Source of the DNA: a virus
Reading direction: 5' to 3' (one strand)
Length of the DNA: 64,000 nucleotides
IMG/VR virus record: IMGVR_UViG_3300017917_001342
Coordinates: 247,669 to 311,668 of that record
Under the pieces are notes generated by a model. The model searched no databases, was not told the DNA's origin, and was given only the letters and a program-made list of their open reading frames with translations. Position 1 is the stretch's first letter; every line of letters begins with the position of its first letter. This document shows positions 25,225 to 64,000 of the stretch, piece after piece. The position numbers and the translations under genes were made by a program.

Positions 25225-25422
25225 TCAGTCATCGTCTCGATTTGAATTAATTACTGCATTGCGTTGTGCTGCAATGCATTGCTCAAGAGTCACATCAGTG
25301 TAGCCAAGATGTCGCATATTTGAGTATTGAATACCACCTAGCACTCGACTCAATCTATCAAGTGCAGCTTCTGCTTCTGCTTGTTCATAATCAAGCATTT
25401 CGGGTGAACAGTATGTGGTCAT
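25225..25422 (-). CDS. hypothetical 65-aa protein
   Basis: ORF. Confidence 0.4.
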   Translation of the reverse strand: MTTYCSPEMLDYEQAEAEAALDRLSRVLGGIQYSNMRHLGYTDVTLEQCIAAQRNAVINSNRDDD

Positions 25423-32420: not shown

Positions 32421-32431
32421 CTGTGTAATCC

Positions 32432-39974: not shown

Positions 39975-40880
39975 ATGGTAAATAACTCCATGTGTATAAT
40001 AGCTGCAAAATATTTCGATGGTGTCGGCTGGGTCGGTGTAAAAAACCGAGATAGAAATTATATACCGGAGATCAGCTTTAAACGTCAAAAGAAAAATGGC
40101 GTTGAAATCATGTTATTTTGGGATGACATTACACAATATTGCGAAGGTATGAACTCCGGTGGTGTTTGCATATTATCTGCAAGCCTTATGGTGTTAGATG
40201 ACGAAAAAGAAATAACCAAACGTTCTAAAACACCTAGCAAAGATGGCATTAAGATTAAAAAAGCACTGCAATATCCCAATGTCAAAGCCGTTGCAATGAG
40301 TTTAATCAAAAGCAAGCTGACCGGTAACACCATCATTTTTGACAAAGACACCTGTTATCTGTTAGAAGGTGCGTGGCGCAGAGGCGGATATAGCGATAGA
40401 GATTATCGTTATAAAATACACGAAATACCTCGTGACAAGTTTGTTGCTAGAACCAATCACGGTGTATGGATAAAAGATGCAGGGTATCAACGCAATCCAG
40501 AGAATGATGCCGAAACACTCAGTCGTGTAAGCAGCGAAAGTCGCAAGGCAATCGGAGATCATGTTACTAAACGTGCTAATACTCCGGAAGAATTGATAGA
40601 CGGTTTAGCAGGCACATGGACCAATAATCCGCAGTTAAACGGTTTGCGAACTGCTAAAGGCAAAAAGCAAATGCGTACTACAAGTCAAATCATGCTTATA
40701 CCTAGTGAAGATACAATGTTTGTCAGACCAGTTCAAAGTCATATGACTTTTAACTTCTGGGATCTAAATAAACCTGACAATGATCTATGGGTAGAAATAC
40801 TAAGTAACAGAGTATTACATCAGCATAAAAAGGAAGGTGGCGAACCACCGTTCCCTAAAATGAATCATTCTACAAAATAA
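39975..40880 (+). CDS. hypothetical 301-aa protein; Met-Cys near the N-terminus (MVNNSMCIIAAKY) suggests a possible Ntn-hydrolase fold
   Basis: ORF. The function is only a weak guess from the N-terminal Cys. Confidence 0.5.
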   Translation: MVNNSMCIIAAKYFDGVGWVGVKNRDRNYIPEISFKRQKKNGVEIMLFWDDITQYCEGMNSGGVCILSASLMVLDDEKEITKRSKTPSKDGIKIKKALQYPNVKAVAMSLIKSKLTGNTIIFDKDTCYLLEGAWRRGGYSDRDYRYKIHEIPRDKFVARTNHGVWIKDAGYQRNPENDAETLSRVSSESRKAIGDHVTKRANTPEELIDGLAGTWTNNPQLNGLRTAKGKKQMRTTSQIMLIPSEDTMFVRPVQSHMTFNFWDLNKPDNDLWVEILSNRVLHQHKKEGGEPPFPKMNHSTK

Positions 40881-41579
40881 ATGATATCAAATAAAAAAGT
40901 TCTACTATTTGGTGATAGCTTTGCAGATAAAAATTCAGTCGGCGAATATGTGGGCTGGCCTGGTTTGCTAGAAAGCTATTATAAAGTTACAAATTTTGCA
41001 GTTTCTGGATCTAGTCCGGATCATCAATTAAAATTGATGTTGGATTTTATAGAAAACACTGACAGTCACAGCTTCAAAGACACTGTGGTAATATTTTTAA
41101 TATCCAGTCCAAATAGATTTGTTTTCAACTTTTATAAGAATCCGTCTGATCATCATTTATCAATTCATCTAGCTTATTACGAATCTGCAGACCTGTCATA
41201 TCACGATGAATTGTCGCCGTATTTAAAATACAAAAAATTTGTAGAAGATTTTTACAAATATTATGCACTTAATGACGAATTTCAACTTACTCATGTGTTG
41301 AAAATATTAGGTATGCTGAATTTGTATTCAACTCTGTTTGATAAAGTATTAGTTTGGCCTATATTTGAAAATTTGCCGTACAAATTACCAACGATGTCTG
41401 ACAAAATGACATTTGTCAGTACACCGTTATTCAATATAGAGGGTAACCCTTACTGTAATGATGATAAACGACCAAACCATTTAATTAAAGAAAACCATCA
41501 TATTATGGTATCGCAATTAATAGAATGGATAGAAACTAATCGATCAATTGATCTTGATCAGTTCAAATGGACCAAATAA
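40881..41579 (+). CDS. SGNH/GDSL-family hydrolase
   Basis: N-terminal VLLFGDSFAD (GDS-x-x-D block I). Stop and start abut (TAAATG). Confidence 0.65.
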   Translation: MISNKKVLLFGDSFADKNSVGEYVGWPGLLESYYKVTNFAVSGSSPDHQLKLMLDFIENTDSHSFKDTVVIFLISSPNRFVFNFYKNPSDHHLSIHLAYYESADLSYHDELSPYLKYKKFVEDFYKYYALNDEFQLTHVLKILGMLNLYSTLFDKVLVWPIFENLPYKLPTMSDKMTFVSTPLFNIEGNPYCNDDKRPNHLIKENHHIMVSQLIEWIETNRSIDLDQFKWTK

Positions 41580-42544: not shown

Positions 42545-43798
42545 TTAGTTGGCAGCTTCTGCGGTTTTATTGTATATTTTCAATGGGTCGCTGCGTTCGT
42601 TAACAACATCTTCTGTAACGACAATCCTACGAATACCTTCGCCGGCCATAGACGGTAGTTCAAATTGCGAACGTAGTAGAATCTTTTCTAAAATACTACG
42701 CAGCCCTCTTGCACCAGTTTTACGTTCCATAGACTGCTTTGCAATTGCACGGAGCGCATCAGTTTGAAATTCAAGGTCAATTCCTTCAATTTTAAACATT
42801 TTTTGGTACTGTTTAACAATTGCGTTCTTTGGTTCGGTGAGAATGTTAACTAGATCGTCTTCTTTGAGATCACAGAATGGTACCATAACTGGAATACGAC
42901 CAATAAGTTCTGGGATAAGTCCGAACTTAATAAGATCTTCCTGCCTAGTTTGTGAGATCAATTCAAACGTATCTTTGTCACTGAGTGACTCACCCGGCAA
43001 CGATGCACCAAAGCCAATGCCAGCACCCTTGTCTAGTCGCTTGCTGATGATATCAGTTAGCCCAACAAATGCACCACCTAGGATGAACAAGATATTCTTT
43101 GTGTTGATTAGAATATATTCACCATGTGGATTTTTACGACCGCCGGTTGGTGGTACTTTGACTTCGCAGCCTTCGATCATTTTAAGCAGTGCTTGCTGAA
43201 CACCTTCACCGCTTACATCGCGTGTAATACTAGTGTTTTCGCTTTTACGGCCTTTTTTGTCAATTTCGTCAATGTACACAATACCACGTTCTGTACGCTC
43301 AACGTCTTGATCAGCAGCTTGATATAGTCGTGCAATAGCTTCTTCAACATCAAGTCCAACATATCCGCTTTCTGTAAGACTGGTAGCATCAATGATAACC
43401 ATTGGAACATCAAGCAGTTTTGCAGCTTGTTGAATGATGTAGGTTTTACCAACACCAGTTGGTCCGATGAACATTAGGTTGGTTTTATCAATCTCAACAT
43501 CGTCAATCACTGGATTGTTGATGCGCTTCATGTGAGAATAGATTGCAACACTCAGCATCATCTTAGCTTGGTGCTGGCCAACCATTCGTTCGTCGAGATA
43601 CGCCATAATTTTATCGGGTGTAAGTACACCAAAATCTTTTGGCTGTTTGACGAATTCTTCTTTAAGAACCCCGTAACATAGTTCTACACATTCGTTACAA
43701 ATGTATACATCGTTACCACTGATCAGCTTATTGACCTCTGTTTGATTCTTACCGCAGAAACTGCAAGAATATGTAGGACGTGAACTATCCCTGGCCAT
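42545..43798 (-). CDS. clpX: ATP-dependent Clp protease ATP-binding subunit ClpX
   Basis: N-terminal C4 zinc finger (CSFCGK ... CNEC), Walker A GPTGVGKT and sensor motifs. Length 417 aa. Confidence 0.95.
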
Positions 43799-48200: not shown

Positions 48201-49493
48201 TTACCAAATAGTTTCGCCGTTTCTTTTTACAACAGCAGTGTAGGTTCCGTCAGTATTCCTAGACACATATAAGCGTTGTTTGATAAAACCGATTACATCG
48301 CCAACACTGTATTGATTTGATCTGTCTTGTACGTCTTTTAGACTTTGTTTGTACACTTCTTCTATATTGTGTATGTCTAAAACACTGCCATCTTCTTCAT
48401 TGGCTTCTTTAGCATATTCTCTAACTTCGTCCGGAGTTAGATCTATAGCATCTTCTATTGTGTCAAATATACCACGTGCTTCGTCGTTGTAAGATAGATA
48501 ACTGGGTGCATCATCTGTTATTTCATCGTCGTCGTTGACATAGCCTTCGCTACGCAACCACTCGTAATAGTAGTCGTCATTGGTTTCCCAATCGCTTAGC
48601 ATTTCGTATACATAATCCATCAACAGTTCTTTTATTTTTTTAGTCAATGGTACTAGTATTTCGTCGGGAGCAAATTCCAACATGCGATCGAAGTATTCTG
48701 GGTGTCGTTCTTTAAAAAAGTCAAACAGTTCAGGAAAACGTGTTCTAAGCAGCCAGGTCAATCCCACTGCATCGTCGTCTTCATTCATAAACTGTTCACT
48801 TGGAAAGTGTAGTTGATACTTTTCACCATCATGTTCAGGGTTCTTAGGTATCAATATGTACAGCGGTCCTTGACGGTTATAACGTTCAAAGTAATTGGTA
48901 CCATGAGTAGCAGCAGTACACCAGCGAGTACCTCGGCCATATCTACATGCTGCTGGTTCATCTAGTGGATGTACAATTGCAACTTCTGAGCTATCGTAGA
49001 TTTTTTCTGCTCGACCCTTGTCGGCATCATCTTCAACGTCTTCGTATTCGTCCATTCTATCTAGAAATTCGTCAAATGTCTTGTAGCGATTAATGTCATT
49101 GAATGGTGCAGCTATACGCTTTTTGCGATTGAGTTTGTCAAACTTGGCAAGATATGTTGCAACAGTACTGACCATATCTTCTATCTGCGTGATTCTTGTA
49201 TTTTGTGGTGATGCAAATAGTCTAGCCATCCACTGAGTATACTTTTTATTTGGCGACGGATCAGCAGCTTCAAACTGTTCCATAGCTCGTTCTGCAAAAT
49301 CATTGAGGCTGTCAGGATCTGATGCTGCATCGTGATATAATGGGCTATTTTTAAGTTTATCGGCTAATTGGTTCAAAGGTGTCGAATATAAACCAACTGC
49401 ATCACGTAGTGCAGCTAATCCTAAATTTGGACCTATCGCAGCAATAGCACGAGCGCGATCATATTCTAGTAATAGTAAAGTTTGTATTTTCAT
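48201..49493 (-). CDS. hypothetical 430-aa protein (motif YGRGTRWCTAATHGTNYF), translationally coupled to the upstream ART-like gene
   Basis: ATGA overlap at 49490-49493. Confidence 0.55.
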   Translation of the reverse strand: MKIQTLLLLEYDRARAIAAIGPNLGLAALRDAVGLYSTPLNQLADKLKNSPLYHDAASDPDSLNDFAERAMEQFEAADPSPNKKYTQWMARLFASPQNTRITQIEDMVSTVATYLAKFDKLNRKKRIAAPFNDINRYKTFDEFLDRMDEYEDVEDDADKGRAEKIYDSSEVAIVHPLDEPAACRYGRGTRWCTAATHGTNYFERYNRQGPLYILIPKNPEHDGEKYQLHFPSEQFMNEDDDAVGLTWLLRTRFPELFDFFKERHPEYFDRMLEFAPDEILVPLTKKIKELLMDYVYEMLSDWETNDDYYYEWLRSEGYVNDDDEITDDAPSYLSYNDEARGIFDTIEDAIDLTPDEVREYAKEANEEDGSVLDIHNIEEVYKQSLKDVQDRSNQYSVGDVIGFIKQRLYVSRNTDGTYTAVVKRNGETIW

Positions 49494-50650
49494 CGTTCGA
49501 GCTCATCTGCTACTATTAGGTTGCCTTTTCTGACAAATTTTCTCAAACCATCTGCTTGTATAAGTTCGTGAGTGCGTTCGTCAGTTGGATAGACTTTACA
49601 TACTTCTAATTCATTTTCCCAGGTGTACTCTGGATTGGGATCGCCTGCTTGCCAATCGTCAAATCCCTGTTTACCATCGGCTAACGCAGTCTCAGGAGTC
49701 TGGCCGGTACCCCAAGCATAATCTTCACTGGGATTGCCAAAGAAATACCACTCGGCTTTGGTTTGTGGTATTGGGCCAGCTTTTTCTTTTGGACGATTCA
49801 TAGTAGTTTGATCGTAATAGACTTTACCGTTTGATCTATTTTCGATTCGTATAATACGAGTTTTACCTTTGAATCCTATGTTGCGTGTAACTCTAACTGT
49901 GTCAGATTCAATAGGTTTAACTGTGGCAAGTACATTGTACATTGCGGTTTCGAACGCAGGGGTATGTCTAATGTCATTTAATATGCGAAAACTTACATAA
50001 TTTCTAAATTTACTAGACGATTGCTTCTTATTGACAATATGTCGTAAAAATACAGTTGCGAGTACTCTTATTTCAAGTAGCGCATTGCGATTCAATTTGA
50101 TTTTTGTAGGTCTGGCATTGTATTGGCGCAGGTTTATTTTAGTTGGATTTAAAAATGCCTGTTCAACATGCGTTAATGCGTTTTGAAAATTTTGTTTGTT
50201 TGAATAGTATGCCGAAGCGTCTTCTACAGATTCAATTGCTGCGGGTGTTGAATCTAATATAGACTCAGTTAATATTGCCATAATATCATCTTCGTCTATA
50301 GTACCTGAACTTATCACATACTGTAGAGTTATTAAAACAGGATCACCGCCATGTGCAGTAGATGCGTTGTCTGCACCTTCTTCTGCTTTGTCTAAGTCAG
50401 AAGTTAGATACACACCGCCTTTAAATGTATCATATCCACCAGTATCTACATTAGTCTCTCTACTGTATGTGGATTTTGGTGGATTAGCTAATAATCCGTG
50501 CTTTAGTATACTAGGTACTAGTGCGCTGCTAGTACCATGATACATGGTTTGAACACGTTGTATTTTTCGTTCGGTGAGGATGTCGTTGATTTGCATCCAA
50601 TATTTATAAGCAAGATAGCTTGAATAACAGTTGTTCTTCTTGACTGGCAA
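49490..50650 (-). CDS. protein with N-terminal H-G-T ADP-ribosyltransferase / Tpt1(KptA)-like motif (MYHGTSSALVPSILKHGL ... GGVYLTSD)
   Basis: YHGT(S/A)..L..I...GL then V-Y/H-L-S/T resembles the NAD-binding core of KptA/Tpt1 and H-Y-E-class ARTs. Confidence 0.45.
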   Translation of the reverse strand: MPVKKNNCYSSYLAYKYWMQINDILTERKIQRVQTMYHGTSSALVPSILKHGLLANPPKSTYSRETNVDTGGYDTFKGGVYLTSDLDKAEEGADNASTAHGGDPVLITLQYVISSGTIDEDDIMAILTESILDSTPAAIESVEDASAYYSNKQNFQNALTHVEQAFLNPTKINLRQYNARPTKIKLNRNALLEIRVLATVFLRHIVNKKQSSSKFRNYVSFRILNDIRHTPAFETAMYNVLATVKPIESDTVRVTRNIGFKGKTRIIRIENRSNGKVYYDQTTMNRPKEKAGPIPQTKAEWYFFGNPSEDYAWGTGQTPETALADGKQGFDDWQAGDPNPEYTWENELEVCKVYPTDERTHELIQADGLRKFVRKGNLIVADELER

Positions 50651-50855
50651 ACCCTATGTATGCATGATTTGCATCAAACCACCACGCCCAGGGTCCTTGG
50701 CAGTTTACATCACACCATTCTATTAATTCATGTTCTATAGTTGGTATTCTGTTGTCGAAGAGCGATGTATGTTTGTAAACATACGGTACATCATTAGGCG
50801 GGAGATTATCCCGCCTAAATTTGCTTTCAACTGACTTACGCAGGGAAGAAGTCAT
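50604..50855 (-). CDS. W-tail family member, degenerate tail (EWCDVNCQGPW ... EEQLLFKLSCL)
   Basis: Motif 1 intact. The terminal W is replaced by C. Confidence 0.55.
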   Translation of the reverse strand: MTSSLRKSVESKFRRDNLPPNDVPYVYKHTSLFDNRIPTIEHELIEWCDVNCQGPWAWWFDANHAYIGFASQEEQLLFKLSCL

Positions 50856-51441
50856 AGATCATTACTTCTTCACGAGGCAATGATGTTTTAGGATATGGTG
50901 TACCTTGTGGAATACCAATTGCAATCAGCATACCAACAACGTGATTTTCTGGCATGTTAATTGCTGCGCCAACTGCATCAGCATCAAACCCAATCATTGG
51001 GCTACATGCAAATCCAAGATCTGTTGCTGCTAGCATGATAGCAGATGCTGCCATACCTACGCTACGCATAGCTTCGTCACGCTGTACTTCTGGACGATCC
51101 TTATAAAATCCCACGGTCATATCTGACATGTATTTTGCAGTTTCTTCGCCGTTTGCAACCCAATAACGAGCCGGGTCGTTTTTCCATGCATTGAGATCTG
51201 CACACACTGCGATCAACACACTGTTAACACCGACCTGTGCTTGATCCCAAGCACTGCGCTTGATCTTTTCTTTAATGCCACGATCACGAATTGCAACAAA
51301 ACGCCAATTTTGAATATTGAAACTGGTCGGCATGCTGCGAGCAGCGTCAATAATGTAATTTAGATCTTCATCTGACATCTGATGACTGGGGTCAAAATCG
51401 CGCTGTGTTCTACGAGCCGTTACTACGTCTTTAAATTCCAT
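50836..51441 (-). CDS. nitroreductase-family (NAD(P)H-flavin oxidoreductase) protein
   Basis: N-terminal RRTQRDF and a fold-typical pattern (Q-N-W-R-F, glycine-rich end). Confidence 0.7.
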   Translation of the reverse strand: MEFKDVVTARRTQRDFDPSHQMSDEDLNYIIDAARSMPTSFNIQNWRFVAIRDRGIKEKIKRSAWDQAQVGVNSVLIAVCADLNAWKNDPARYWVANGEETAKYMSDMTVGFYKDRPEVQRDEAMRSVGMAASAIMLAATDLGFACSPMIGFDADAVGAAINMPENHVVGMLIAIGIPQGTPYPKTSLPREEVMIYDFFPA

Positions 51442-51518: not shown

Positions 51519-51553
51519 GTAAAAGAATAAGGGCAAGCGTAAAGCTTGCCCTT
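51519..51553 (-). terminator. minus-strand intrinsic terminator (AAGGGCAAGC-GTAAA-GCTTGCCCTT then TTATTCTTTT)
   Basis: 10-bp stem plus a T-rich tail downstream of 51575..52087. Confidence 0.55.
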
Positions 51554-51574: not shown

Positions 51575-52087
51575 TTAGACCCACTCTTGGCCCATTGCAC
51601 GCATCTTAACGATGCTGTCGAGTGCGTAGGTGCGGATAACAACCTTGTTGTCAAGCCCGCCTTGACCGTTGTCGTCACGCTTTTCCGGAAGCCCTTCGAT
51701 CAGTTCGGGTGCAATCGGATAGCCATCTTGCAGGTATTGCACTTCGCCTGCATTCATGAAGATCACTTCCAAATAGTGCGCACCCTTGTGTTCAACAAAG
51801 GGCGTACCGGCAATACGCTGTCCCCAGGCACGCTCACCGAGTTGGAACGATTCGGGATCTTTGCCTTCAGCAGCAAGACGACGCTTAACCATTGCATCAT
51901 ATGCGCTGCCATTGGTGTTAGTGAAGCACATTACCGTAGAACCAGTAACTTCTTTGGTAATGCGACCTTGCTGCGGATTCTTTTTGCCGCCCTTGAGCAC
52001 AACTTCGGTAACAGTGTCAATACCAACAAACGTACCACCTGCCAGCGTTTCGAACACTTTCTGTGCAGTTTCCAGTTTCATTTGCAT
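51575..52087 (-). CDS. hypothetical 170-aa protein
   Basis: ORF followed by a terminator. Confidence 0.55.
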   Translation of the reverse strand: MQMKLETAQKVFETLAGGTFVGIDTVTEVVLKGGKKNPQQGRITKEVTGSTVMCFTNTNGSAYDAMVKRRLAAEGKDPESFQLGERAWGQRIAGTPFVEHKGAHYLEVIFMNAGEVQYLQDGYPIAPELIEGLPEKRDDNGQGGLDNKVVIRTYALDSIVKMRAMGQEWV

Positions 52088-52163: not shown

Positions 52164-52550
52164 TCAATTTTTTAATGCAGCAAGTCTAGCAGCACGAGCA
52201 GCAGCTTGTTCGGCTTTGCACTTTTCTACATGTGCAAGCCCTGCATCAAGTGCAGTCTGCATTGCTTTGATACCTTTTTCATCAAGTATCACATCTGACA
52301 CAAAAGTATAGTGTCCTGTAAACAGTATCTTAGCAGCAGTCTTAATGCGCCAAGGCCAGCGTTTAAAGAAGTTACCCCAACGTTCAAATGCACCGAACCG
52401 CAGTTCAACATTTAGAGAAATTTCAGTAAATTCTTTTTCTGCTTCAAAAAACATACTGACGTCGTGATCACAATCGCCGCAATCGCATGCAACTCGCCAA
52501 TGGCTAGAACCATCGCAGTAGTCGTTGAGTTTCATTAGCTTTTCTTGCAT
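52164..52550 (-). CDS. hypothetical 128-aa Cys-rich protein (CDCGDCDHD)
   Basis: ORF. Confidence 0.5.
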   Translation of the reverse strand: MQEKLMKLNDYCDGSSHWRVACDCGDCDHDVSMFFEAEKEFTEISLNVELRFGAFERWGNFFKRWPWRIKTAAKILFTGHYTFVSDVILDEKGIKAMQTALDAGLAHVEKCKAEQAAARAARLAALKN

Positions 52551-52567: not shown

Positions 52568-52644
52568 TGGTAGGGGATGCAGGACTCGAACCAGCAACCT
52601 ACGGATTATGAGTCCGGCGCTCTAACCAATTGAGCTAATCCCCC
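52568..52644 (-). tRNA. tRNA with CAU anticodon (Met/Ile2-type; overall closest to elongator tRNA-Ile2(LAU) architecture), CCA encoded
   Basis: Cloverleaf folded by hand: 7-bp acceptor (G1-U72 wobble), D-arm AGCTCAATTGGTTAGAGC, anticodon loop CUCAUAA, T-arm GCTGG-TTCGAGT-CCTGC (one U-U mismatch), discriminator A plus CCA. Confidence 0.8.
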
Positions 52645-52654
52645 ATTGTAGCTA

Positions 52655-53275
52655 TTATATAGCTTCGTTGTGCTTTTCTTGCAAGCGTTTTTTAATTGTC
52701 TTGTGAATACCAGGGTTTACCTTAAGCACATGCGGCATAAGTTCTTTACGAATATAGTTACGAGTAAAATCCAAATTGGCATTGCTAGTGTCTTCAAGCC
52801 ACGGCACATTATGCGATTCGCACCAAGCAACTAGATCAGCTTTGCGAGTAGTGAGAAATGGACGCACTACATTACCGCGATGCAGTTCTGGCAGCTTTGG
52901 TTGTCCGTTGATGCTGCCCCATAGCCAAGTTTCAACCGCATCGTCGAGATGATGTGCAACTACCACTGTTTCAGACAGCTTTTCAAAAAATGCATAGCGT
53001 TCTTCACGCCAGTATTCTTCAATGCTTTCGCTTTTATGACGCGGTCTTGACACAGACCCTATTACAATTGGAATGTCATGTGTAGTGCAATAATTTTCAA
53101 CAAACTGCAACGACTCAGTACTGTTATCAGCAGCATGGTCAAAATATGCAACCACAACCTGATGATTCCTACGAAGGAAGTCTAGTGCAGCCATTGAGTC
53201 GGCACCGCCTGAACAGGCAATGTAAAGGTGTCTCGGGAGTTTGTTCATAAGCTTGATCATGTGTAATATATACAC
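52655..53275 (-). CDS. tilS: tRNA(Ile)-lysidine synthetase TilS, N-terminal catalytic PP-loop domain only (206 aa)
   Basis: PP-loop SGGADS (IACSGGADSMAALDFL), HHLDD(A/Q)xET and RPFL..R..L..W......W.EDxSN blocks align with E. coli TilS. C-terminal tRNA-binding domains are absent. Confidence 0.8.
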   Translation of the reverse strand: MYILHMIKLMNKLPRHLYIACSGGADSMAALDFLRRNHQVVVAYFDHAADNSTESLQFVENYCTTHDIPIVIGSVSRPRHKSESIEEYWREERYAFFEKLSETVVVAHHLDDAVETWLWGSINGQPKLPELHRGNVVRPFLTTRKADLVAWCESHNVPWLEDTSNANLDFTRNYIRKELMPHVLKVNPGIHKTIKKRLQEKHNEAI

Positions 53276-53299: not shown

Positions 53300-54022
53300 T
53301 TATTTGGCTCTCCATGGGAAGTTACCACCATAGCGTTCGTACTGTATGCGGTTACCATTGTTGAAAAACTCTTGGTTAACACTGTTGGGATTGCCATCTA
53401 GTCTATAATTTAGTGTGTACTGTCCAGTGGTTCCCCATTGCGGAAAGTGTTGAGATATTGCAGCAAGAAAACGTCTGTCACCGCCCCAGCCCCAGTGCCA
53501 TGCAGAACCTATCTGTGTAATAACTTCACGCTTAATGCAGAAACTGCTGGTGTCAACTAGGTGATGATTTGCACCAAGATATATAGGCCAACGACCTAGA
53601 CTTTCACAGTCGTCTAGACAAAGGTAGTTACCATCCTTGTCTACAATTTTACGTAGGCTGTGCCCCCATTGCCAGCCATTGGCTTCTATGGCAGCAATCT
53701 GTGTAGCTACGTGATCAATATCAAACCAATTGTCTTGATCCAAATACAGTATGTAATCTGTATTCACCAAGTGGCTAACTGCTGCATAGATGCGATGACC
53801 ATAAAAACCATTTGCACCAGTGTTGTCGGGCAATTGCAATATTTTTACATAGTTGCGGTACTGTTCAATGACTGTGTTTACTGCGTCAGTAAACTGCGGC
53901 CCATCTATTACTACCCAGACTTCTGTATTTGGATGTGTTTGCAACAAAGCAGAATCAACTGCTTTGGCTAAAACTTCGTTACCAGTGGCGGCTATGACTA
54001 TGGTTGCTGTACTCATACTCAA
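53300..54022 (-). CDS. family-2-like glycosyltransferase (GT-A fold, DxD = LDQDN)
   Basis: N-terminal Rossmann IVIAATGNE, DGPQ, DxD. Confidence 0.6.
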   Translation of the reverse strand: MSMSTATIVIAATGNEVLAKAVDSALLQTHPNTEVWVVIDGPQFTDAVNTVIEQYRNYVKILQLPDNTGANGFYGHRIYAAVSHLVNTDYILYLDQDNWFDIDHVATQIAAIEANGWQWGHSLRKIVDKDGNYLCLDDCESLGRWPIYLGANHHLVDTSSFCIKREVITQIGSAWHWGWGGDRRFLAAISQHFPQWGTTGQYTLNYRLDGNPNSVNQEFFNNGNRIQYERYGGNFPWRAK

Positions 54023-54038
54023 GTGTGCGATCTAACAG

Positions 54039-54590
54039 TTAACCTTGCAACCATAGAGGGAACAATGCATCTTTGTTGTCAGTGCTGATAAAGTATCCGT
54101 TAAAGTCGCTGGTGTTAGGTACGATACGTACATTGGTATCTTTCAGATACTTTTTTATTTCGCGTAACGGTATACCTTGTGCATAGCACACATGTAGTCT
54201 CGGTGGAAGCTGTCTAACCCATTCTATTGCAGAGTCTATCATTGCATCTGTTCCAATAACGCAAACTTCATTTTCAACATAGGTGCAATCAATTAAATCA
54301 TCTGGTAGGTTCATAACCTGATGCACATAGCTGTTATGTAGGAAATCTTCAAACTTGCGTTTTTTTGAAATGTGTATAGCACCCTGTGCTGTGCAATAAT
54401 CTACAATTTGTGAGTGTTCCCAGTCACTTATAGCAGCAACACTCATACCTTTTATACCTGGTATATTCCACCATTTTTTAAAACTGTCATCGTGTGTTAA
54501 TTTCAATTCCCAGGCGGCTAATGAGAACGGAACTTTGTCCATGCTATTAACCATTCTTCTGAACATTCTGTAACGGTGATGTGTGGTCAC
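54039..54590 (-). CDS. hypothetical 183-aa protein
   Basis: ORF. Confidence 0.5.
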   Translation of the reverse strand: MTTHHRYRMFRRMVNSMDKVPFSLAAWELKLTHDDSFKKWWNIPGIKGMSVAAISDWEHSQIVDYCTAQGAIHISKKRKFEDFLHNSYVHQVMNLPDDLIDCTYVENEVCVIGTDAMIDSAIEWVRQLPPRLHVCYAQGIPLREIKKYLKDTNVRIVPNTSDFNGYFISTDNKDALFPLWLQG

Positions 54591-54908: not shown

Positions 54909-55130
54909 TTACGCACGAAGTCGTTCTTCCAATGTAAAATGTTCTACATCAAGAACATCCAACAACCAGTTAGTCATTACATCATCTATATAGTGTTGTG
55001 ATTTACCTAAAATATCACGACGTGCAACTGCAATATCGTTTTTGTAGAATGTAATCGAGTATCCGCCCTCGATATCACTGCAAACCGAATATTTGTTATC
55101 ATCTGGTATAAGGGAATAGATCTGATGCAT
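54909..55130 (-). CDS. hypothetical 73-aa protein
   Basis: ORF. Confidence 0.45.
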   Translation of the reverse strand: MHQIYSLIPDDNKYSVCSDIEGGYSITFYKNDIAVARRDILGKSQHYIDDVMTNWLLDVLDVEHFTLEERLRA

Positions 55131-55579
55131 TAGCCGGCTTTTTTAAGTTTCTCTTGAAACATTTTAAGTCTTTTTGCAGCAATGTCATTGTTTAACAGCA
55201 TATCAACTGTCCACGACAACGGTCTTGGCATTTCACTGAGATCTGCCCATTTATATTCAACATGTTCCCAACTAAGCTTGGGTTCAAATTCCTTATTGAT
55301 ACCTATTGCAAAATTAGTGTGTATGAACTTGGGTTCTTCTGTAGTGTTTGTAGACAGTTTAACAATAGGTGCTTCTGATAGACTGCGACCTATTTCTTCA
55401 GTTAGTTCTCTGTACAGTCCTTCTAGGACTGTTTCTCCACGTTCTACATGACCACCGGGTAAACACCAATGCAGTGGATCATTTACTAGATCACTGCGCA
55501 AAATAAAGAGGACACGTTCTGTCTCTCTGGCCCATATCAGTGCAGATGCTGCCTGTTTGATTAGTTCATCATATCTCAT
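55130..55579 (-). CDS. NUDIX hydrolase
   Basis: Nudix box GGHVERGETVLEGLYRELTEEIG. Confidence 0.8.
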   Translation of the reverse strand: MRYDELIKQAASALIWARETERVLFILRSDLVNDPLHWCLPGGHVERGETVLEGLYRELTEEIGRSLSEAPIVKLSTNTTEEPKFIHTNFAIGINKEFEPKLSWEHVEYKWADLSEMPRPLSWTVDMLLNNDIAAKRLKMFQEKLKKAG

Positions 55580-57676: not shown

Positions 57677-58369
57677 TTACTTGCGTTGTCCGAGCAGCTT
57701 GAGCAAGTACAACATTAGGTTTACAAAGTCTAGGTATAGACTCAATGCACCCATGATACCAGCTTTTGCACGTTCTTCGCCACTGGTAAGGTAATAGACT
57801 TCTTTGACTTTCTGTGTGTCATATGCAGTCAACCCCACAAAGATCAACACACCGATTACACTGATCGCAAAGTCAAATGCAGCACTTTGCATAAAAAGGT
57901 TGACAATGCTTGCTACGATCAATCCGATTAGACCCATTAGCAGGAACCCACCAAGACTGGTTAGATCCTTTTTAGTAGTATAACCGTAGATACTCATAGA
58001 AAGAAACATCACAGCAGTAATACCAAATACTTGGAATACAGATCCCAGTTGGTACATAAGGAACACTGTGCTAAGGCTAACGCCCATAACAGCAGCGTAT
58101 GCATAGAACATTGTTTGTAGTGCAGATGCACTAAACTTTTCAAATCCAAAGCTCATCACCAGCACCATTGCCAACGGTGCAAAGACAAACAGGAATGCCT
58201 GCGGTCCGCCTAGGAACAGTGCGGTAAGTTCCGGCACAGTTGCAACTAGATACGCAACAACACCGCTGACTACAAGACCAATGCCCATGTTGTTGTAAAC
58301 ACTGAGCATATGTTCACGCAACCCGTTATCAATTACAGCAGTTGCAGTATGACCATTTAGTTTTTCCAT
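57677..58369 (-). CDS. yccA: BAX-inhibitor-1 / YccA-family membrane protein (putative FtsH modulator)
   Basis: Seven predicted TM helices with the family-typical N-terminal cytoplasmic segment. A candidate sigma70 promoter (TTGTAA, 17-nt spacer, TATATT) lies upstream at about 58400-58435. Confidence 0.7.
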   Translation of the reverse strand: MEKLNGHTATAVIDNGLREHMLSVYNNMGIGLVVSGVVAYLVATVPELTALFLGGPQAFLFVFAPLAMVLVMSFGFEKFSASALQTMFYAYAAVMGVSLSTVFLMYQLGSVFQVFGITAVMFLSMSIYGYTTKKDLTSLGGFLLMGLIGLIVASIVNLFMQSAAFDFAISVIGVLIFVGLTAYDTQKVKEVYYLTSGEERAKAGIMGALSLYLDFVNLMLYLLKLLGQRK

Positions 58370-58440
58370 TAACAGTACCCTTTCTTAAGGTTATATGAAA
58401 AACAGTTATAATATAGTACAGTGTTTGATTATTTACAAGA

Positions 58441-58737
58441 TCATCTATTATTTTTTAGATGTTGTTCGTACCATTCTTCTAGTCTAGGTACAATACTATG
58501 ACTATCCATAGTTAATTTAAACAAAAATGCGTCGTCTGCAGATTGAAAACAGATTGTAACAGGCTGATTTGCTACAACACGGCCTTCTTGGTTTTTTACA
58601 AAACTCAGTTTGAATTTCGCAGTACCGTCGCGGTTAGTACCGTATTCGGCTTTAATCCACTCTATTAAACGACCACCATGGCCAGTCCATATTTCAGTTG
58701 GTATACTAACATGGTAAGGTGTGGGGAGATACGTCAC
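58441..58737 (-). CDS. W-tail family-like protein (IEWIKAEYGTN ... DDAFLFKLTMD + 17-aa extension)
   Basis: Motif 1 and an FKLT core are present, with a C-terminal extension in place of the W end. Confidence 0.5.
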   Translation of the reverse strand: MTYLPTPYHVSIPTEIWTGHGGRLIEWIKAEYGTNRDGTAKFKLSFVKNQEGRVVANQPVTICFQSADDAFLFKLTMDSHSIVPRLEEWYEQHLKNNR

Positions 58738-59903
58738 AGTACCACCCCACTCAGCAGTTCTTCTTTGGTAGCAACATAGCCGCTATCTGCCCAGGCATTT
58801 TTCAGCCGGTTCAGCATTGCACCCAGGTCTTTACCCGGCTTCATACCCATAGCAATCAGATCCTTACCTGTAACAGGAAACGGATCAAATTCCCAATGAA
58901 CCAGAGCATTCTGACTCCATGCATCGCGCTCTTCGATTGCAGCCAGTTCAGCAACCCATTTGCGTGGTGCACCATCAACAGCAATCAGACGACGCAGGTC
59001 ATCGTTACGCTTGTAATGCTTGCACAGCCACAGTGCATGATCACGTTCTTCGCTGCTCCATTTCAGGTCAACGGCAATACGTGCAACGTCATCGTAGTCC
59101 CAAAATTGCCATGCTGCCATAACAACCTCGGGATCTTGCGAAAATTGCAAAATTGCTTTTGCAAAAGCTGGCATGTGATCAGCAAACACTGCAACATTGG
59201 TCGAAATGTAGCTGCCCATACCAATTTCGTGCATTGCAGCAAACAGCGCAGAACCACGAGGATGAACAACGATCTTTTTCAGTTCGCTCCAAACACGCTC
59301 TCTGCTGATCTGATTCAGACCTTTGTAGTTGTCCAGGATAGCCTGCCAAGCAGCGGGATCAATGCGGCCCGGCTTGCCGAACCGTGCTTGAAAACGGAAC
59401 CAGCGCAGGATACGCAGGTAGTCTTCTTTAACACGAGTATCAGCATCACCAACAAAGCGAACCAGTTGGTCCTGCAGATCCTGTTGACCATTGAACGGAT
59501 CAATCAGCACACCATCGAACGTCATTGCCATAGCATTGAACGTAAAGTCCCTACGGCTCAGGTCTTCGATCCAATCGCGAGTGTAAGCAACTTTTGCATG
59601 ACGACCATCGTGATCGGTTTCAGTACGCAAGCTGGTGATTTCATAACCAACATGGTCAATTACCACAGTGATAGTACCGTGTTGCAGACCAGTTTCTACA
59701 TACCGGTAACCAAATGCACGGTAGATTTCCAGTTGTTCTGTGGGATCAGCATCAGTGCAGAAGTCCATATCCTTGGGTTCAACACCTGCAACAATGTCAC
59801 GAACTGCACCACCAACTAGACGGATATCAAACCCACGGCTTTGAAATGCAGCACGCAGCGTTTTCAGTTCTTCTGTGAAGTATTTGTCGAACACAGTTGA
59901 CAC
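58734..59903 (-). CDS. cca: tRNA nucleotidyltransferase (CCA-adding enzyme), class II
   Basis: Head-domain motif LVGGAVRD ... KDMDF, then RDFTFNAMA. Confidence 0.8.
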   Translation of the reverse strand: MSTVFDKYFTEELKTLRAAFQSRGFDIRLVGGAVRDIVAGVEPKDMDFCTDADPTEQLEIYRAFGYRYVETGLQHGTITVVIDHVGYEITSLRTETDHDGRHAKVAYTRDWIEDLSRRDFTFNAMAMTFDGVLIDPFNGQQDLQDQLVRFVGDADTRVKEDYLRILRWFRFQARFGKPGRIDPAAWQAILDNYKGLNQISRERVWSELKKIVVHPRGSALFAAMHEIGMGSYISTNVAVFADHMPAFAKAILQFSQDPEVVMAAWQFWDYDDVARIAVDLKWSSEERDHALWLCKHYKRNDDLRRLIAVDGAPRKWVAELAAIEERDAWSQNALVHWEFDPFPVTGKDLIAMGMKPGKDLGAMLNRLKNAWADSGYVATKEELLSGVVL

Positions 59904-60228: not shown

Positions 60229-61593
60229 TTATCTATCAACTTTAGCTAGCTTTTTAAGTGCTAGAACTTCTTTGCGGTAAATGTCTTTTTGTTTCTTTGG
60301 ATCTGCTAACAGTGTTTGATGCTCTGCAATTCTAGCACTGAGATCTGCAATCTTAGCAACGATTTCGCTGTATGCATCTTTAGCCCAGCGATAACTTGGT
60401 AGGCTTGCAATGCGATCTGTTTGATCTTCGTCTATATCAATGCCTTTACACAGGGTTTGTACTTTTGCGACAACATCGGATTTGTCTGCGGCTTTGGGTA
60501 AGAACTCAGGTAGCTTACCATCTATACAGGCTTTGAGTGCTAGGTTCCAATTCAATTGATAGGTCAAATCTGCAATGATTTTTTCAAAGCGTACTTTGTA
60601 CCAACCTAGACGCCACTGCACAAATTCTGTAATCAACTGGTCAGCAGTTTCAAACTGACGAACACTGTTGCCGTTCCAGTCTAGCACAACCAGTCGTTCT
60701 GTTACACGACTACGCAGTTTAAAGAAATCAATTGCAGTTTCTTCAGTCCAATCTGCAATTGTACCGCGCTTGAAACGCACTTCAATTTTGATAGTTTTTG
60801 TGCTGCGGTCGATATAGGTCTGAATCTTATCATCGTCTTCAAGACCATTGAGACGTTCTTTGAATTTCTCAAGGCTAAGGTTAGGCGGAAGTTCTTCGAT
60901 CCAAACAGTGCTACCATCTATTCTTGCACGACCTGTAAACTCCCAGGCATTGCCTGCAATGTTTCGCACGTTGCAATCAAGATAGTCATACTTGGGTGCC
61001 AGTGTTTTAATAGGCTTACCATCAATTGCTGCAACAGTGGCTTCGATTAGATCTTCAAGACTGCGAGGAAGAATGTCGGTACTCCATCCGACTGCAATAC
61101 CACTGATACCATTTAGCAAAACCATTGGTATTAAAGGCAAGTAATTCTTTGGCTCCATTACACTGCCGTCATAGTTTTCTTTCAATGGCACAATGTCGTA
61201 ATCTGTAAACACCAACGCATCTGTATTGGCATTGCGCTTCAAATACGTATAACGAGGTGCACCCCAGTCAGTTGGTCCAATTTTAGTACCAAACGCACCG
61301 ATACCTTGCAGCAACGGCACGTTGTTGCAGTAGGGTGCAGCCATTAGACTCAGTGTTTCTGCCGCACTGGCATCACCGTGCAGGTATACGTTTTGACTGA
61401 TCATTTCGCCTGCAAGCGAAATAGTCTTGATCTTATCGCTTTTAGGTTTGATTACAAACAGTGCTTTGCGCTGTGCATCTTTAAGTCCGTCGCACACACT
61501 GGGAATACCGCGTGTTTGACACACATAGATACTGTAGTCACGACTGGTACTTTTGATGTAATCAGTTGTAGTAGTGTTCTGTGTATCAAGCAT
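60229..61593 (-). CDS. gp52: type II DNA topoisomerase medium subunit (T4 gp52-like, GyrA-type breakage-reunion domain)
   Basis: Active-site region GAPRYTY and PLIPMVLLNGISGIAVGWST match gp52/GyrA. 8-nt overlap with the large-subunit gene. Confidence 0.85.
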   Translation of the reverse strand: MLDTQNTTTTDYIKSTSRDYSIYVCQTRGIPSVCDGLKDAQRKALFVIKPKSDKIKTISLAGEMISQNVYLHGDASAAETLSLMAAPYCNNVPLLQGIGAFGTKIGPTDWGAPRYTYLKRNANTDALVFTDYDIVPLKENYDGSVMEPKNYLPLIPMVLLNGISGIAVGWSTDILPRSLEDLIEATVAAIDGKPIKTLAPKYDYLDCNVRNIAGNAWEFTGRARIDGSTVWIEELPPNLSLEKFKERLNGLEDDDKIQTYIDRSTKTIKIEVRFKRGTIADWTEETAIDFFKLRSRVTERLVVLDWNGNSVRQFETADQLITEFVQWRLGWYKVRFEKIIADLTYQLNWNLALKACIDGKLPEFLPKAADKSDVVAKVQTLCKGIDIDEDQTDRIASLPSYRWAKDAYSEIVAKIADLSARIAEHQTLLADPKKQKDIYRKEVLALKKLAKVDR

Positions 61594-63463
61594 CTAATGC
61601 AATCCATTCTTTACGTGCATCTGCACCTTTGGGGTCGAATATCAATTTAAGTGCTTCACTTAGATTACCATCATCTATCAGCGGAACCAATTTAGGTTTA
61701 ACCAAACTGTGACGCCAATCTGCTTCTTCTAGACTACCAAGACCTTTTGCACGAGTTGGCTTTGGACAGTTTTTCCAATCTTTAGGATCGTATGTGTGAT
61801 AGTCGTCTGCATACCAATAGTGCCGTGTTTTGCCTTTTTCTTGAATGATAAAAGGTGTTTGGAATGCATAGAAGAATGGTTCAAGTTTTGAATCAAACAG
61901 TTCTGGCCAATGTAGATAAAAGAAGTTAACCAGCAATGCTGTGATGTTTGCACCGTCAGGGTCTTGGTCAGCAGCTAGATAAACTCTGCCATAGCGTAGA
62001 TCTGCACGATTAGCCTTTTGACCTAGCGCACAACCAATACTGGTCATTATGTCAGTTAGAATCTGATTGTCTAGCAGTGTCTTAGGTGCTTCACCGCGCA
62101 CATTGAGTATTTTACCACGCAGTGGCAACGCACCGTGTATCTCCGGATCACGTACAGCACTGACCATGGTCTTAGCACTGTCCCCTTCTGTGATAAGCAG
62201 TATGCACTTTGTACGATCTTTACCATTGGCATCTAGTAGTTTAGGTACCTTGGTACGCATCATCTTGCGAGTAGCTTTGGCTAGCTCTGCATCGTCTTTT
62301 TTCTGTGTACGAGCAGCACACCTTGCATAGATTTCATCAATCCATTCTTTATTGGTTTTGATAATGCTTTTGAAGGTGTTTTCATCTTCTAGCGTTTTAC
62401 GAATATACACATCTACATCGTCATTGATCAGTCGAGTTTTGCTCTGACTGTCAAAGTTAGGTGCATGCATTACAGTTACGTTGTATATCAGTAAACCGTC
62501 AGCTACGTCACTGCGGTTAGGTGTTAGCCCGCGGCGTTTGCTTTCGCGCTCTAGTCCTTTGATAAGACCGCTGTAAAACAATCGTTTGAATGTGTCAATG
62601 TGCTGTCCGCCGTTGAATGCAGGAATGTCATTAACAGTAGTATGCAGATATTCACCATCGTCTGCAAAATTTGGTACCAAGTAGTAGCTGCTGTTGAAGT
62701 TTTTGTCCTTAACAACAATTTCAATCACACGCTTGTTATCAAAGAATGTTTTTGCAACAGTTGGTTTGACTACTATGCGACTGTCGTTGAAATAAAACTT
62801 GATCTTAGGATGGTTAGCAGCAATCTCGGTTATACGAGCCTTGACAAATGCCAATGGCAAATTGATCTTCTTGAACACAGTTTTGCTGAGTTTAAAAGTC
62901 ACAGTAGTACCGCTTTTCGCAGCACTTTTTGTAATCTTAGGTTCGCGAATATCAAGTTCGTCAATTGCAGCATTGCCTTCGTTAAACGTCTGTTGGAAAC
63001 GCTGTCCGTCTCTAACAATGTCTAACATGAAGTATTCGCTACAACTTACCACTGTGCTGGCACCGATACCGTTGGTGCCGCGCACTTCTTCTCTTACACC
63101 AAAGTTACGTCCAGCTCTTGCCTGTGTAAGAGCGATCGTTGCTTTGTGCATACGTTCGTTTTCATCCCAGTCAATTGGAATACCGCGACCATCATCGGAC
63201 ACTGTGAATTCCATAGTTTTGGGATCATACTTTACATCAACGCGACTGCCATGCCCATGACCAATGACTTCGTCAAGTGCGTTGTCGAGTATTTCGCGGA
63301 ATGCGCAATACACAGCAGGGGTCCATGTCATTTCAACTGGCTTGAGTTCTTTGCCATCCCAATTGACAATGGTCTGCGTATGCGGACTGCGACTACCCAA
63401 GTACATTTCTGTACGTAGTCTATGATGTTGATAATCTGTGAGTTTTTGAATATTTTCTGTCAT
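61586..63463 (-). CDS. gp39: type II DNA topoisomerase large subunit (fused T4 gp39+gp60-type; GHKL ATPase + TOPRIM)
   Basis: ILDNALDE ATPase motif, TOPRIM ILLITEGDSA, PLRGK. 625 aa, uninterrupted. Confidence 0.9.
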   Translation of the reverse strand: MTENIQKLTDYQHHRLRTEMYLGSRSPHTQTIVNWDGKELKPVEMTWTPAVYCAFREILDNALDEVIGHGHGSRVDVKYDPKTMEFTVSDDGRGIPIDWDENERMHKATIALTQARAGRNFGVREEVRGTNGIGASTVVSCSEYFMLDIVRDGQRFQQTFNEGNAAIDELDIREPKITKSAAKSGTTVTFKLSKTVFKKINLPLAFVKARITEIAANHPKIKFYFNDSRIVVKPTVAKTFFDNKRVIEIVVKDKNFNSSYYLVPNFADDGEYLHTTVNDIPAFNGGQHIDTFKRLFYSGLIKGLERESKRRGLTPNRSDVADGLLIYNVTVMHAPNFDSQSKTRLINDDVDVYIRKTLEDENTFKSIIKTNKEWIDEIYARCAARTQKKDDAELAKATRKMMRTKVPKLLDANGKDRTKCILLITEGDSAKTMVSAVRDPEIHGALPLRGKILNVRGEAPKTLLDNQILTDIMTSIGCALGQKANRADLRYGRVYLAADQDPDGANITALLVNFFYLHWPELFDSKLEPFFYAFQTPFIIQEKGKTRHYWYADDYHTYDPKDWKNCPKPTRAKGLGSLEEADWRHSLVKPKLVPLIDDGNLSEALKLIFDPKGADARKEWIALDA

Positions 63464-64000
63464 CGTGTGTTAGTTATACAAGAAACGACTGCGTTGAACA
63501 AGAGTTTTTATTTTCATATGCTTAAAACAATGAAATCGGAATGTATTTTTACATCCCGACTCACTGTATTCGTTTATAATATAATAATTTAGAGTCTGAC
63601 AAATTCAACGCCTTCGGCGTGGCTTGGCAGTAATATAATAATTTATCTTGACGGGTACTTTATATTTACTAGTCTTGATAGGTATGTAGTTAATATGTTA
63701 TCATCATTGGTGTAGTAAAACGGCAGTTTGATTCTGTTTCCAAGTCCAAACTGCCAAAAACTCATTTACGCTGCGAGAGCGTAAGAAGGTGCAACGTTAT
63801 CGTTTGCAACTGTTGATTTTCTTGCGTTAACCGAGCTTGCGCCGGGCAACTCCACTCACATAGTCCGCCTGTCGATCCTATTTCGAGCCCATCAAGAATA
63901 CACACCGTGATCTAAGGCCGGAATTCCCGCCCCTTGACGTATCGAAGTCGCTGTCCAGTTTCCCGAACTATTTCGATACATGTGTACTCTTGGTGGACCC
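63464..64000. other. 537-bp ORF-free, hairpin-rich region: duplicated TAATATAATAATTTA boxes (63586, 63636), UUCG-tetraloop hairpin (ACGCC-TTCG-GGCGT, ~63617-63630), and several longer stems at 63720-63990
   Basis: No ORF over 60 aa in any frame. Inverted repeats GGCAGTTTG/CAAACTGCC, ACGCT/AGCGT and GTATCGAA/TTCGATAC. Confidence 0.5.

Follow-up and report, generated by a model that had tools for sequence, protein, structure and literature searches.

A virus-specific short TilS gene next to an Ile2-type tRNA(CAU) gene: a probable phage module for AUA decoding

The short tilS gene and the adjacent tRNA(CAU)

The DNA analysed here, a 64,000-nt window of the viral record IMGVR_UViG_3300017917_001342 (all positions refer to the whole window), derives from an uncultured T4-related jumbo phage and carries on its minus strand a gene for a 201-aa protein corresponding to the catalytic domain of the lysidine synthetase TilS, followed after 10 nt by a gene for a tRNA with anticodon CAU. 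Domain identity, fold, tRNA type, conserved linkage and codon usage support the reading that these two genes probably constitute a phage-encoded enzyme-substrate module for reading AUA codons. That an Ile2-type tRNA(CAU) and a catalytic-domain-only TilS form a phage AUA-decoding unit had been proposed in the initial annotation of the window, and the proposal was supported by every computational test that we ran.

ARAGORN called exactly one tRNA in the window, as initially annotated, at 52568-52644 on the minus strand (anticodon CAT). The 77-nt gene, which reads GGGGGAUUAGCUCAAUUGGUUAGAGCGCCGGACUCAUAAUCCGUAGGUUGCUGGUUCGAGUCCUGCAUCCCCUACCA on the minus strand, encodes its CCA end and matches the Rfam model RF00005 (68.8 bits, E 6.6e-13). 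The tilS gene extends over 52655..53260 on the same strand, an assignment based on Pfam, NCBIfam, PDB, AF2 (AlphaFold2) and the family alignment; its stop codon occupies 52655-52657 and is separated from position 1 of the tRNA by a 10-nt spacer (52645-52654). The initial annotation had located the protein 87 nt downstream of the tRNA in the same orientation: the orientation was correct, but tilS lies upstream of the tRNA, at the shorter distance given above. Regarding the size of the protein, the 206 aa announced initially correspond to the mechanically defined open reading frame (ORF; 52655-53275, minus strand) starting with a GTG at 53275, whereas the alignment of relatives indicates a family-conserved ATG start at 53260 (MIKL...), yielding 201 aa.

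The protein consists of an N-terminal PP-loop ATP-pyrophosphatase domain only. It scored 132.3 bits over profile positions 2-189 of 189 against the NCBIfam model TIGR02432 (lysidine_TilS_N), an equivalog-domain model of the TilS N-terminal domain with a curated cut-off of 93.6, and all 28 aligned family members matched this model above the cut-off; the window protein also matches Pfam PF01171 (1.6e-36). Alignment with PDB sequences places it on residues 22-222 of the 464-aa Geobacillus kaustophilus TilS (3a2k), 13-199 of the 433-aa E. coli TilS (1ni5) and 25-227 of the 317-aa Aquifex aeolicus TilS (1wy5), the N-terminal domains of type I TilS matching at E 1e-14 to 6e-17. The blocks SGGADS, HHLDDAVET, RPFL and WxEDxSN reported initially are all held by the ORF, the last one as WLEDTSN, and the TilS-specific motifs beyond the PP-loop (AHHLDDAVET, VRPFL, WLEDTSN and TRNYIR) align with their counterparts in 3a2k, 1ni5 and 1wy5. 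In the family alignment S17, G19, D21, S22, H103, L105, D107, E110, T111, R133, P134, F135, D157, N160, R167, N168 and R171 are invariant, the PP-loop, HLDDxxET, RPF, D..N and RN..R positions being unchanged across relatives at 38-93% identity. An AF2 model built on 33 relatives reached a pLDDT of 94.1 and a pTM of 0.89, and its top Foldseek matches in the PDB were all TilS (2e21, 1ni5, 1wy5 and 2e89, the last being a complex with ATP, Mg and lysine; TMq 0.80-0.84), ahead of TtuA. These results show that the window protein is a bona fide TilS catalytic domain.

In agreement with the initial annotation, the C-terminal tRNA-binding domains are lacking, the alignments to solved TilS covering the N-terminal domain only. 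The protein stops at residue 201, about where C-terminal domain 1 (CTD1) would start, and CTD2, the domain that reads the acceptor stem in type I enzymes, is also absent. No separate CTD2-like ORF was seen near tilS, and an all-against-all comparison of the ORFs within 2.5 kb of tilS at 17 loci revealed no conserved partner protein replacing the tRNA-binding domains, tilS being the only common gene. A basic helix conserved in the family at the C-terminus (residues 185-200, HKTIKKRL) is a candidate for binding the stem. To our knowledge, CTD1 is found in every characterised TilS of types I and II, and we know of no characterised lysidine synthetase as small as the phage protein. PHROGs holds no family for it and gave only weak matches to PAPS-reductase and QueC-like families.

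In a search of 5.8 billion proteins 1132 matches were obtained, the family comprising more than 1100 clusters, and the 120 relatives listed are all 193-218 aa long, so that the term "truncated" used initially is misleading; a truncated pseudogene is ruled out by this uniform length and by the invariant motifs of the family alignment. A metagenome scan with the single protein as query retrieved 11 loci, and an alignment-based scan of viral sequences reached more, at least 573 IMG/VR viral contigs, some longer than 300 kb, carrying a short tilS. Screening of 185,579 species genomes located close relatives (41-53% identity) solely on short contigs of metagenome-assembled genomes (MAGs) whose discordant taxonomy spans Flavobacteriales to Woesearchaeota, contigs that are most simply explained as mis-binned phage DNA, and the identity of genuine bacterial TilS with the window protein does not exceed 33%; the short TilS family is therefore virus-specific. 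The contigs L109-L114 (L-numbers designate the fetched loci of relatives), from MAGs or single-amplified genomes labelled Crocinitomicaceae, Flavobacteriales, Opitutia, Saccharibacteria, Pelagibacteraceae and Woesearchaeota, carry a short tilS at 41-53% identity and are probably mis-binned phage DNA; four of them have a tRNA(CAU) beside it.

Turning to the tRNA, its acceptor stem includes G1.U72, G2:C71, G3:C70, G4:C69 and G5:C68 with A73 as discriminator, its D-stem is GCUC/GAGC (C11:G24, U12:A23) and its T loop UUCGAGU. The G1-U72 pair and the U51-U63 mismatch that had been described initially are both present, together with a C27.U43 mismatch that had gone unmentioned and leaves a four-pair anticodon stem below the CUCAUAA loop (A37, A38). 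The likeness of the D-arm, anticodon loop and T-arm to tRNA-Ile2, also pointed out initially, holds, all three being close to E. coli ileX.

Silva et al. (2006; PMC1635315) classified 1070 bacterial CAT tRNAs and reported that G3, A3, C70 or U70 acts as a complete negative discriminator for tRNA-Met, both elongator and initiator, which usually carry C3:G70, that initiators are marked by A11:U24 and G12:C23, that the Ile/Met ratio ranges from 0.6-0.9 for Ile and 1.2-1.5 for Met, and that C4:G69 and C5:G68 are frequent in tRNA-Ile2. The 3:70 pair of the window tRNA is G3:C70 and not the Met-type C3:G70; G3:C70 is also a positive identity element of Burkholderia cenocepacia tRNA-Ile2 (PMC11947777). 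With E. coli references only, the Ile/Met difference ratio is 0.74, the window tRNA differing from ileX at 21 positions and from the prophage Ile2 at 20, versus 27 for metT/U and 28 for metZ (fMet). The best matches listed among 5426 complete E. coli genomes are tRNA-Ile genes annotated by the Prokaryotic Genome Annotation Pipeline (PGAP), and the one that was examined has a CAT anticodon and lies within a prophage tRNA cluster. An initiator tRNA was ruled out by the absence of the initiator marks, namely C1xA72, A11:U24/G12:C23 and a GGG/CCC anticodon stem, the stem ending here with G30:C40 and A31:U39. The CUCAUAA loop and A73 are common to elongator tRNA-Met too and are thus necessary, not discriminating. 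The pairs C4:G69 and C5:G68 are replaced by G4:C69 and G5:C68, which does not exclude Ile2 membership because the former are frequent, not universal. As judged from its sequence, the window tRNA is of the Ile2 type rather than Met or fMet.

A near-identity DNA search of 50,697 phage records returned a single, 63-nt match to the tRNA, in Acidovorax phage ACP17. The sequence, CAU tRNA-like and without annotation, is cut by the end of the linear record (L002 1-72; record end 156215-156281). Over 63 nt its identity to the window tRNA is 92%, and its anticodon arm (CCGGA/UCCGG) is fully paired; it was not called by ARAGORN because it is incomplete.

Linkage of tilS and tRNA(CAU) among phages

About 100 loci encoding relatives of the window protein were fetched and scanned for tRNAs. 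This comparison between phages gave the decisive evidence. In 12 divergent lineages, whose proteins are 41-93% identical, a tRNA(CAU) accompanies the short tilS, at a distance of at most 43 nt in eight of them. In seven lineages it lies 9-43 nt downstream of tilS, as in the window clade (L017, L018 and L007-9, with 84%, 81% and 70% protein identity) and in L031 (62%), L032/33 (60%), L039 (57%), L037 (56%), L075/80 (54%) and L114 (43%). It is located 17 nt upstream of the short tilS in L110 (47%), and 0.3-1.3 kb from it in L113, L111, L016 and L026 (41-51%). The tRNA(CAU) is the sole tRNA of the fetched stretch in eight lineages and belongs to a tRNA cluster in three, in two of which it is the tRNA nearest to tilS. 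In the lineages with an adjacent tRNA, this tRNA is always CAU.

The linked tRNAs resemble one another in type. C3:G70 occurs in none of the 15 linked tRNAs, 14 having G3:C70 and one U3:A70; all 15 possess A73 and lack the initiator marks, and the Ile/Met ratio is 0.70-0.87 in 11 of 13 and 1.0 in the other two. Within the window clade, L017 and L018 have the very same tRNA and that of L007 shows one change, while the adjacent TilS proteins are only 70-84% identical and the flanking proteins 54-94%. The neighbours of the window tilS are conserved in the closest phage clade only.

Several further observations were made at these loci. The first acceptor pair is weak in eight of the 12 linked lineages, as G1.U72 (window, L032, L037, L016, L111 and L113) or A1:U72 (L075 and L110), a feature that could bear on RNase P processing, on the discrimination between isoleucyl- and methionyl-tRNA synthetases (IleRS and MetRS) or on escape from host factors. 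A permuted transfer-messenger RNA (tmRNA) lies 0.5-2 kb upstream of the short tilS in L031-L034 and L075/L080. In L016, an IMG/VR contig, the cluster around the short tilS includes a tRNA with anticodon CUA (6291-6365; an amber suppressor, designated "Pyl" by ARAGORN), a possible sign of stop-codon recoding in this phage.

Expression, proposed mechanism and alternative readings

The tilS-tRNA junction, comprising the 10-nt spacer and the last tilS codons (52645..52661, minus strand), was aligned between the window, L017, L018 and L007. It contains a -10-like block, GCTATATAATA (52651-52661, minus strand), which overlaps the last tilS codons and the stop, ends 8 nt before position 1 of the tRNA and is kept in the three relatives though the neighbouring C-terminal codons vary; the final sense codon of tilS is itself AUA. 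This block may serve the tRNA as a promoter or as a signal for its processing. Several other lineages show AT-rich, TATA-like motifs 8-20 nt before the tRNA, and L111 has a complete TTGACA-17-TACAAT. Consensus scans of the tilS-tRNA interval for promoters and terminators remained at background level with nothing significant, and the conserved TATATAATA, found once in the window and not enriched, is not a recurrent phage promoter motif.

On the other side of the tRNA, orf128 (52164-52550, minus strand) begins with an ATG 17 nt past the 3' end of the tRNA, and its ribosome-binding site is AGGAA; it is followed by orf170 (51575-52087, minus strand), taken from the ORF list, and by a hairpin with a 10-bp stem that the terminator scan identified as terminator-like (51529-51553, minus strand). 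Since no terminator-like site separates tilS from the tRNA, orf128 starts only 17 nt further on and the hairpin comes two ORFs later, co-transcription of tilS and the tRNA followed by RNase P processing is likely, and the segment 51529..52550 (minus strand) is probably part of the same transcript. The orf128/orf170 stretch stands outside the conserved module, its ORFs being kept in the closest phage clade only.

The mechanism that we infer, covering catalysis, co-transcription, the benefit to the phage and the private character of the pair, draws on published lysidine chemistry and tRNA-Ile2 biology (PMC9976931, PMC11947777). Transcription of the tRNA would accompany that of tilS or follow it closely, and maturation would rely on host RNase P together with 3' processing, the CCA being encoded. 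With an unmodified C34 it would act as a methionine tRNA, charged by MetRS and reading AUG. The 201-aa protein would use ATP to adenylate C34 at its C2 position, and AMP would then be replaced by lysine, joined through its epsilon-amino group, to yield lysidine, a modification expected to switch the tRNA to charging by IleRS and to decoding of AUA only. Carrying both tRNA and enzyme would let AUA capacity scale with infection and not with host tRNA-Ile2 and TilS, both present at a low level. Devoid of CTD1 and CTD2, the enzyme would be able to read the anticodon arm only, and the linked tRNAs would correspondingly have shed the acceptor pairs C4:G69 and C5:G68 read by host type I TilS.

Regarding codon demand, the genes had initially been described as AT-rich and AUA-containing. 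The window is moderately AT-rich (41.6% GC), and the second part of the statement stands: in 91 mechanically chosen ORFs, ATA accounts for 365 of 1253 Ile codons (29%), or 18.9 per 1000 codons, about the frequency of ATG. ATA represents 0-5% of Ile codons at 11129-13318 (rIIA, 1/48), 24087-26195, 31563-33358 (two adjacent genes, 0/36), 37101-38954, 42545-43798, 50836-51441 and 57677-59903 (including a gene resembling those of CCA-adding enzymes, 0/20), and 45-100% in the tail-fibre genes at 643-8971 (21/46 and 51/116 for two of them), at 39975-41579, 48201-50855 and 53300-54590, and in many small ORFs, many of them above 50%. Usage of AGA/AGG and of CUA/UUA splits among genes as that of ATA does, and the bimodality could reflect expression class, timing or gene age.

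Several points weigh against an enzyme-substrate module for AUA decoding. This strong bimodality of AUA use among the window genes is one of them, and a mismatch in AUA usage between phage and host is presumed. C4:G69, C5:G68 and C29:G41 are absent from the window tRNA, which carries two mismatched stem pairs in addition to G1.U72. In the family's largest clade (about 54% identity) no tRNA comes closer than 5 kb to tilS, and none lies within 4 kb of it in PA5oct/MIJ3 and two uncultured phages of 630-640 kb; the CAU tRNAs of PA5oct/MIJ3 are 7-10 kb away, MIJ3 having three of them upstream of tilS. In addition, all characterised TilS carry CTD1, and the catalytic activity of an N-terminal-domain-only form is a prediction from sequence. 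The activity of B. cenocepacia TilS falls dramatically on deletion of CTD2, and substitutions in CTD1 affect catalysis (PMC11947777); by analogy, a lone N-terminal domain might be slow or might require a partner such as a host factor.

Two alternative readings dispense with the module. The tRNA could be an elongator tRNA-Met, possibly reading AUA by superwobble on its 4-bp anticodon stem, its adjacency to a PP-loop gene then being meaningless. The ARAGORN label, tRNA-Met by anticodon, and the missing C4:G69 and C5:G68 agree with such an assignment, as does the C27.U43 mismatch, since extended decoding was proposed in a 2026 study for tRNAs with such a stem, which make up 27% of bacterial elongator tRNA-Met (PMC13092985). 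However, only the window clade and MIJ3 show the 27:43 mismatch, the other linked tRNAs having a normal 5-bp stem, and the reported complete negative discriminator G3:C70, the lack of C3:G70 in every tilS-linked tRNA, the closer proximity to E. coli Ile2 than to Met genes and the constant CAU identity of the adjacent tRNA make this reading very improbable. It is also unlikely, though less so, that the protein descends from TilS as an ATP-pyrophosphatase whose task has changed and is not a plain lysidine synthetase, attaching another amine to C34, acting on another RNA or on host tRNA-Met/fMet so as to disturb host translation, or shielding the tRNA against a host anticodon nuclease. Such a change of function would fit with the loss of the known specificity devices along with both tRNA-recognition domains, with the divergence of this virus-specific family from bacterial TilS (at most 33% identity), with the RNA-repair and rescue functions of the neighbourhood (a CCA-adding-enzyme-like ORF and tmRNA) and with the largest clade having no linked tRNA. 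It is opposed by a score above the curated cut-off of the TilS equivalog-domain model, by the invariance of all TilS-specific motifs outside the generic PP-loop, by nearest structures that are TilS and not TtuA, TtcA or LarE, and by the recurrent linkage specifically with Ile2-type CAU tRNAs; modification of tRNA-Met would moreover affect a tRNA that the phage itself requires.

A third question, compatible with the enzyme-substrate module, is which TilS can mature the tRNA. Guinto et al. (PMC11947777) reported that B. cenocepacia TilS needs G3:C70 and C4:G69, that removal of CTD2 leaves weak activity and loses 3:70 discrimination while tRNA-Met is still rejected, that E. coli TilS uses 4:69 and 5:68, and that inversion of C4:G69 nearly abolishes the activity of the B. 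cenocepacia enzyme. From G4:C69 and G5:C68, poor recognition of the window tRNA by a type I host TilS is therefore predicted. One may tentatively envisage a private (orthogonal) pair, in which the host TilS could not mature the phage tRNA and the phage enzyme would read the anticodon arm only; AUA-rich genes would then be translated efficiently only after expression of the module, which would serve as a private decoding channel or a timing device. C4:G69 is missing from eight of the 12 linked lineages, in which G4:C69 (or G.U) replaces it, and from six of the eight tightly linked ones, although four linked lineages retain it. The T4 tRNA-Ile(CAU) and the E. coli prophage Ile2 gene, which have no phage TilS beside them, retain C3:G70, C4:G69 and C5:G68, but these two sequences are the whole comparison set of tilS-less phages. 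The dependence of type I TilS on acceptor pairs and the absence of CTD2, the acceptor-stem reader, from the phage enzyme also point towards a private pair. AUA is near zero in conserved core genes and reaches 45-100% in tail fibres and many small ORFs, as expected for such a channel, but the bimodality extends to other AT-ending rare codons and may reflect gene age or expression level, and tilS and its upstream neighbours contain AUA themselves, so that expression of the module already requires some AUA decoding.

Candidate anticodon-arm determinants are G30:C40 and Y28:R42, the latter being present in 12 of 12 linked lineages but replaced by G28:C42 in MIJ3. Two tRNAs(CAU) of MIJ3 (L108; 34831-34907 and 35312-35388) have identical D, anticodon and T arms, including the C27.U43 mismatch, and differ in the acceptor stem (C3:G70/U4:A69 versus G3:C70/A4:U69); the two resemble a duplicated CAU-Leu(UAA) unit. 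As they share all arms except the acceptor, a TilS reading arms only could not distinguish them. The third tRNA(CAU) of MIJ3 (37442-37518) is initiator-like, with C1xA72.

Phage context, known systems and significance

The window carries rIIA (11129-13318, minus strand), T4-type topoisomerase II subunits (60229-63463, minus strand) and large collagen-like tail-fibre genes (643-8971, plus strand). Identity of the large topoisomerase subunit with its counterparts in Agrobacterium phage Atu_ph07 and Sinorhizobium phage Phosso, two phages of 470-490 kb, amounts to 54-57%, and the host is possibly alphaproteobacterial. A bacterial origin of the window was ruled out by rIIA, the T4-type topoisomerase II, the tail fibres and the nearest relatives Atu_ph07 and Phosso. 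A 389-aa ORF (58734-59903, minus strand), located 5.5 kb upstream of tilS on the same strand, combines a poly(A) polymerase/CCA-adding head (PF01743, 1.8e-30), an RNA-binding domain (PF12627) and a tRNA nucleotidyltransferase domain 2 (PF13735) and is probably a phage CCA-adding or tRNA-repair enzyme. A permuted (two-piece, alpha-type) tmRNA whose 5' end is cut by the window edge occupies 63722-64000 on the minus strand (RF01849, 60.4 bits; RF04321, 59.3 bits). Accessory genes on the minus strand encode a nitroreductase-family protein (50836-51441), a Nudix hydrolase (55130-55579) and a BAX-inhibitor-1 family membrane protein (57677-58369; 1.1e-59), and the ORF at 49490-50650 (minus strand) gave a weak, sub-threshold match to PARP (poly(ADP-ribose) polymerase)/ADP-ribosyltransferase-like proteins (E 7.6e-4).

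Homology links the phage protein with type I TilS (E. coli MesJ/TilS 1ni5, the G. kaustophilus TilS-tRNA complex 3a2k, B. cenocepacia) over the N-terminal domain, and the chemistry and the substrate class, tRNA-Ile2(CAU), are presumably common to both. Type I enzymes are 430-465 aa long with CTD1 and CTD2, neither of which exists in the phage protein, and read 4:69/5:68 (E. coli) or 3:70/4:69 (B. cenocepacia), positions 4:69 and 5:68 being G4:C69 and G5:C68 in the window tRNA. Type II TilS (A. aeolicus, 1wy5/2e21/2e89) has the same catalytic domain, motifs and fold as the phage protein (TMq 0.83-0.84); both are without CTD2 and must choose their substrate without acceptor-stem reading. By contrast, the type II enzyme (317 aa) keeps CTD1, which comes close to the stem of the anticodon arm and to the elbow, whereas the phage protein ends at about residue 201.

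Among phage proteins, the putative TilS of PA5oct/MIJ3 (gp263; QCG76301.1/VOH55205.1; about 203 aa) belongs to the same short family (39% identity over 97%) but differs in the arrangement described above, with no tRNA adjacent to tilS and the three CAU tRNAs of MIJ3 clustered at a distance. It was presented as an unusual phage gene of unknown function, and neither the missing C-terminal domains nor a link to a phage tRNA-Ile2 was mentioned (PMC6892783). Viral TilS homologues have been proposed to serve tRNA maturation or AUA-rich codon usage in pelagimyophages (PMC7029224), in Ralstonia phage RsoM2USA (PMC8504454) and in chloroviruses (PMC7589089). ORF84 of RsoM2USA is a longer form of 349 aa with an identity of only 27%, and a tilS-tRNA gene pair appears in none of these papers.

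Phage tRNAs(CAU) that decode AUA after lysidinylation include T4 tRNA-Ile, the ileZ-type tRNA of E. coli prophages and a vibriophage tRNA; in the literature, T4 tRNA-Ile(CAU) is the classical case and one vibriophage tRNA(CAU) was reported with lysidine (k2C34). These tRNAs depend on the host TilS whereas the window tRNA is accompanied by its own putative enzyme, and the T4 and prophage tRNAs have C:G at 3:70, 4:69 and 5:68 where the window tRNA has G:C at all three. A full-text literature search, with subscription journals outside its coverage, found no description of an N-terminal-domain-only family, of a tilS-tRNA(CAU) pair or of the departure in the acceptor stem. TilS has already been annotated in phages, whereas a TilS made of the N-terminal domain only and its pairing with a gene for the presumed substrate seem not to have been reported before.

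How Ile2 and Met tRNAs sharing the same anticodon are told apart is still open for TilS without the acceptor-stem-reading domain (PMC11947777). The phages offer a large natural family without both appended domains, many members of which have the presumed substrate gene only a few bases from their own, and thereby dozens of enzyme-tRNA pairs for defining minimal recognition rules. The view of phage tRNAs as a compensation for codon usage or host shutoff extends here to carrying the maturation enzyme too, without which a phage tRNA(CAU) would insert the wrong amino acid. A more speculative possibility is that a third, virus-specific TilS architecture and a co-evolving tRNA(CAU), stripped of the acceptor-stem identity elements that cellular TilS reads, form a natural orthogonal pair with a private AUA channel. 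If true, such a pair might gate the translation of late or accessory genes rich in AUA, and it would reveal which minimal determinants separate Ile2 from Met; if independent of host TilS, it would provide a compact tool for reassigning or boosting AUA decoding.

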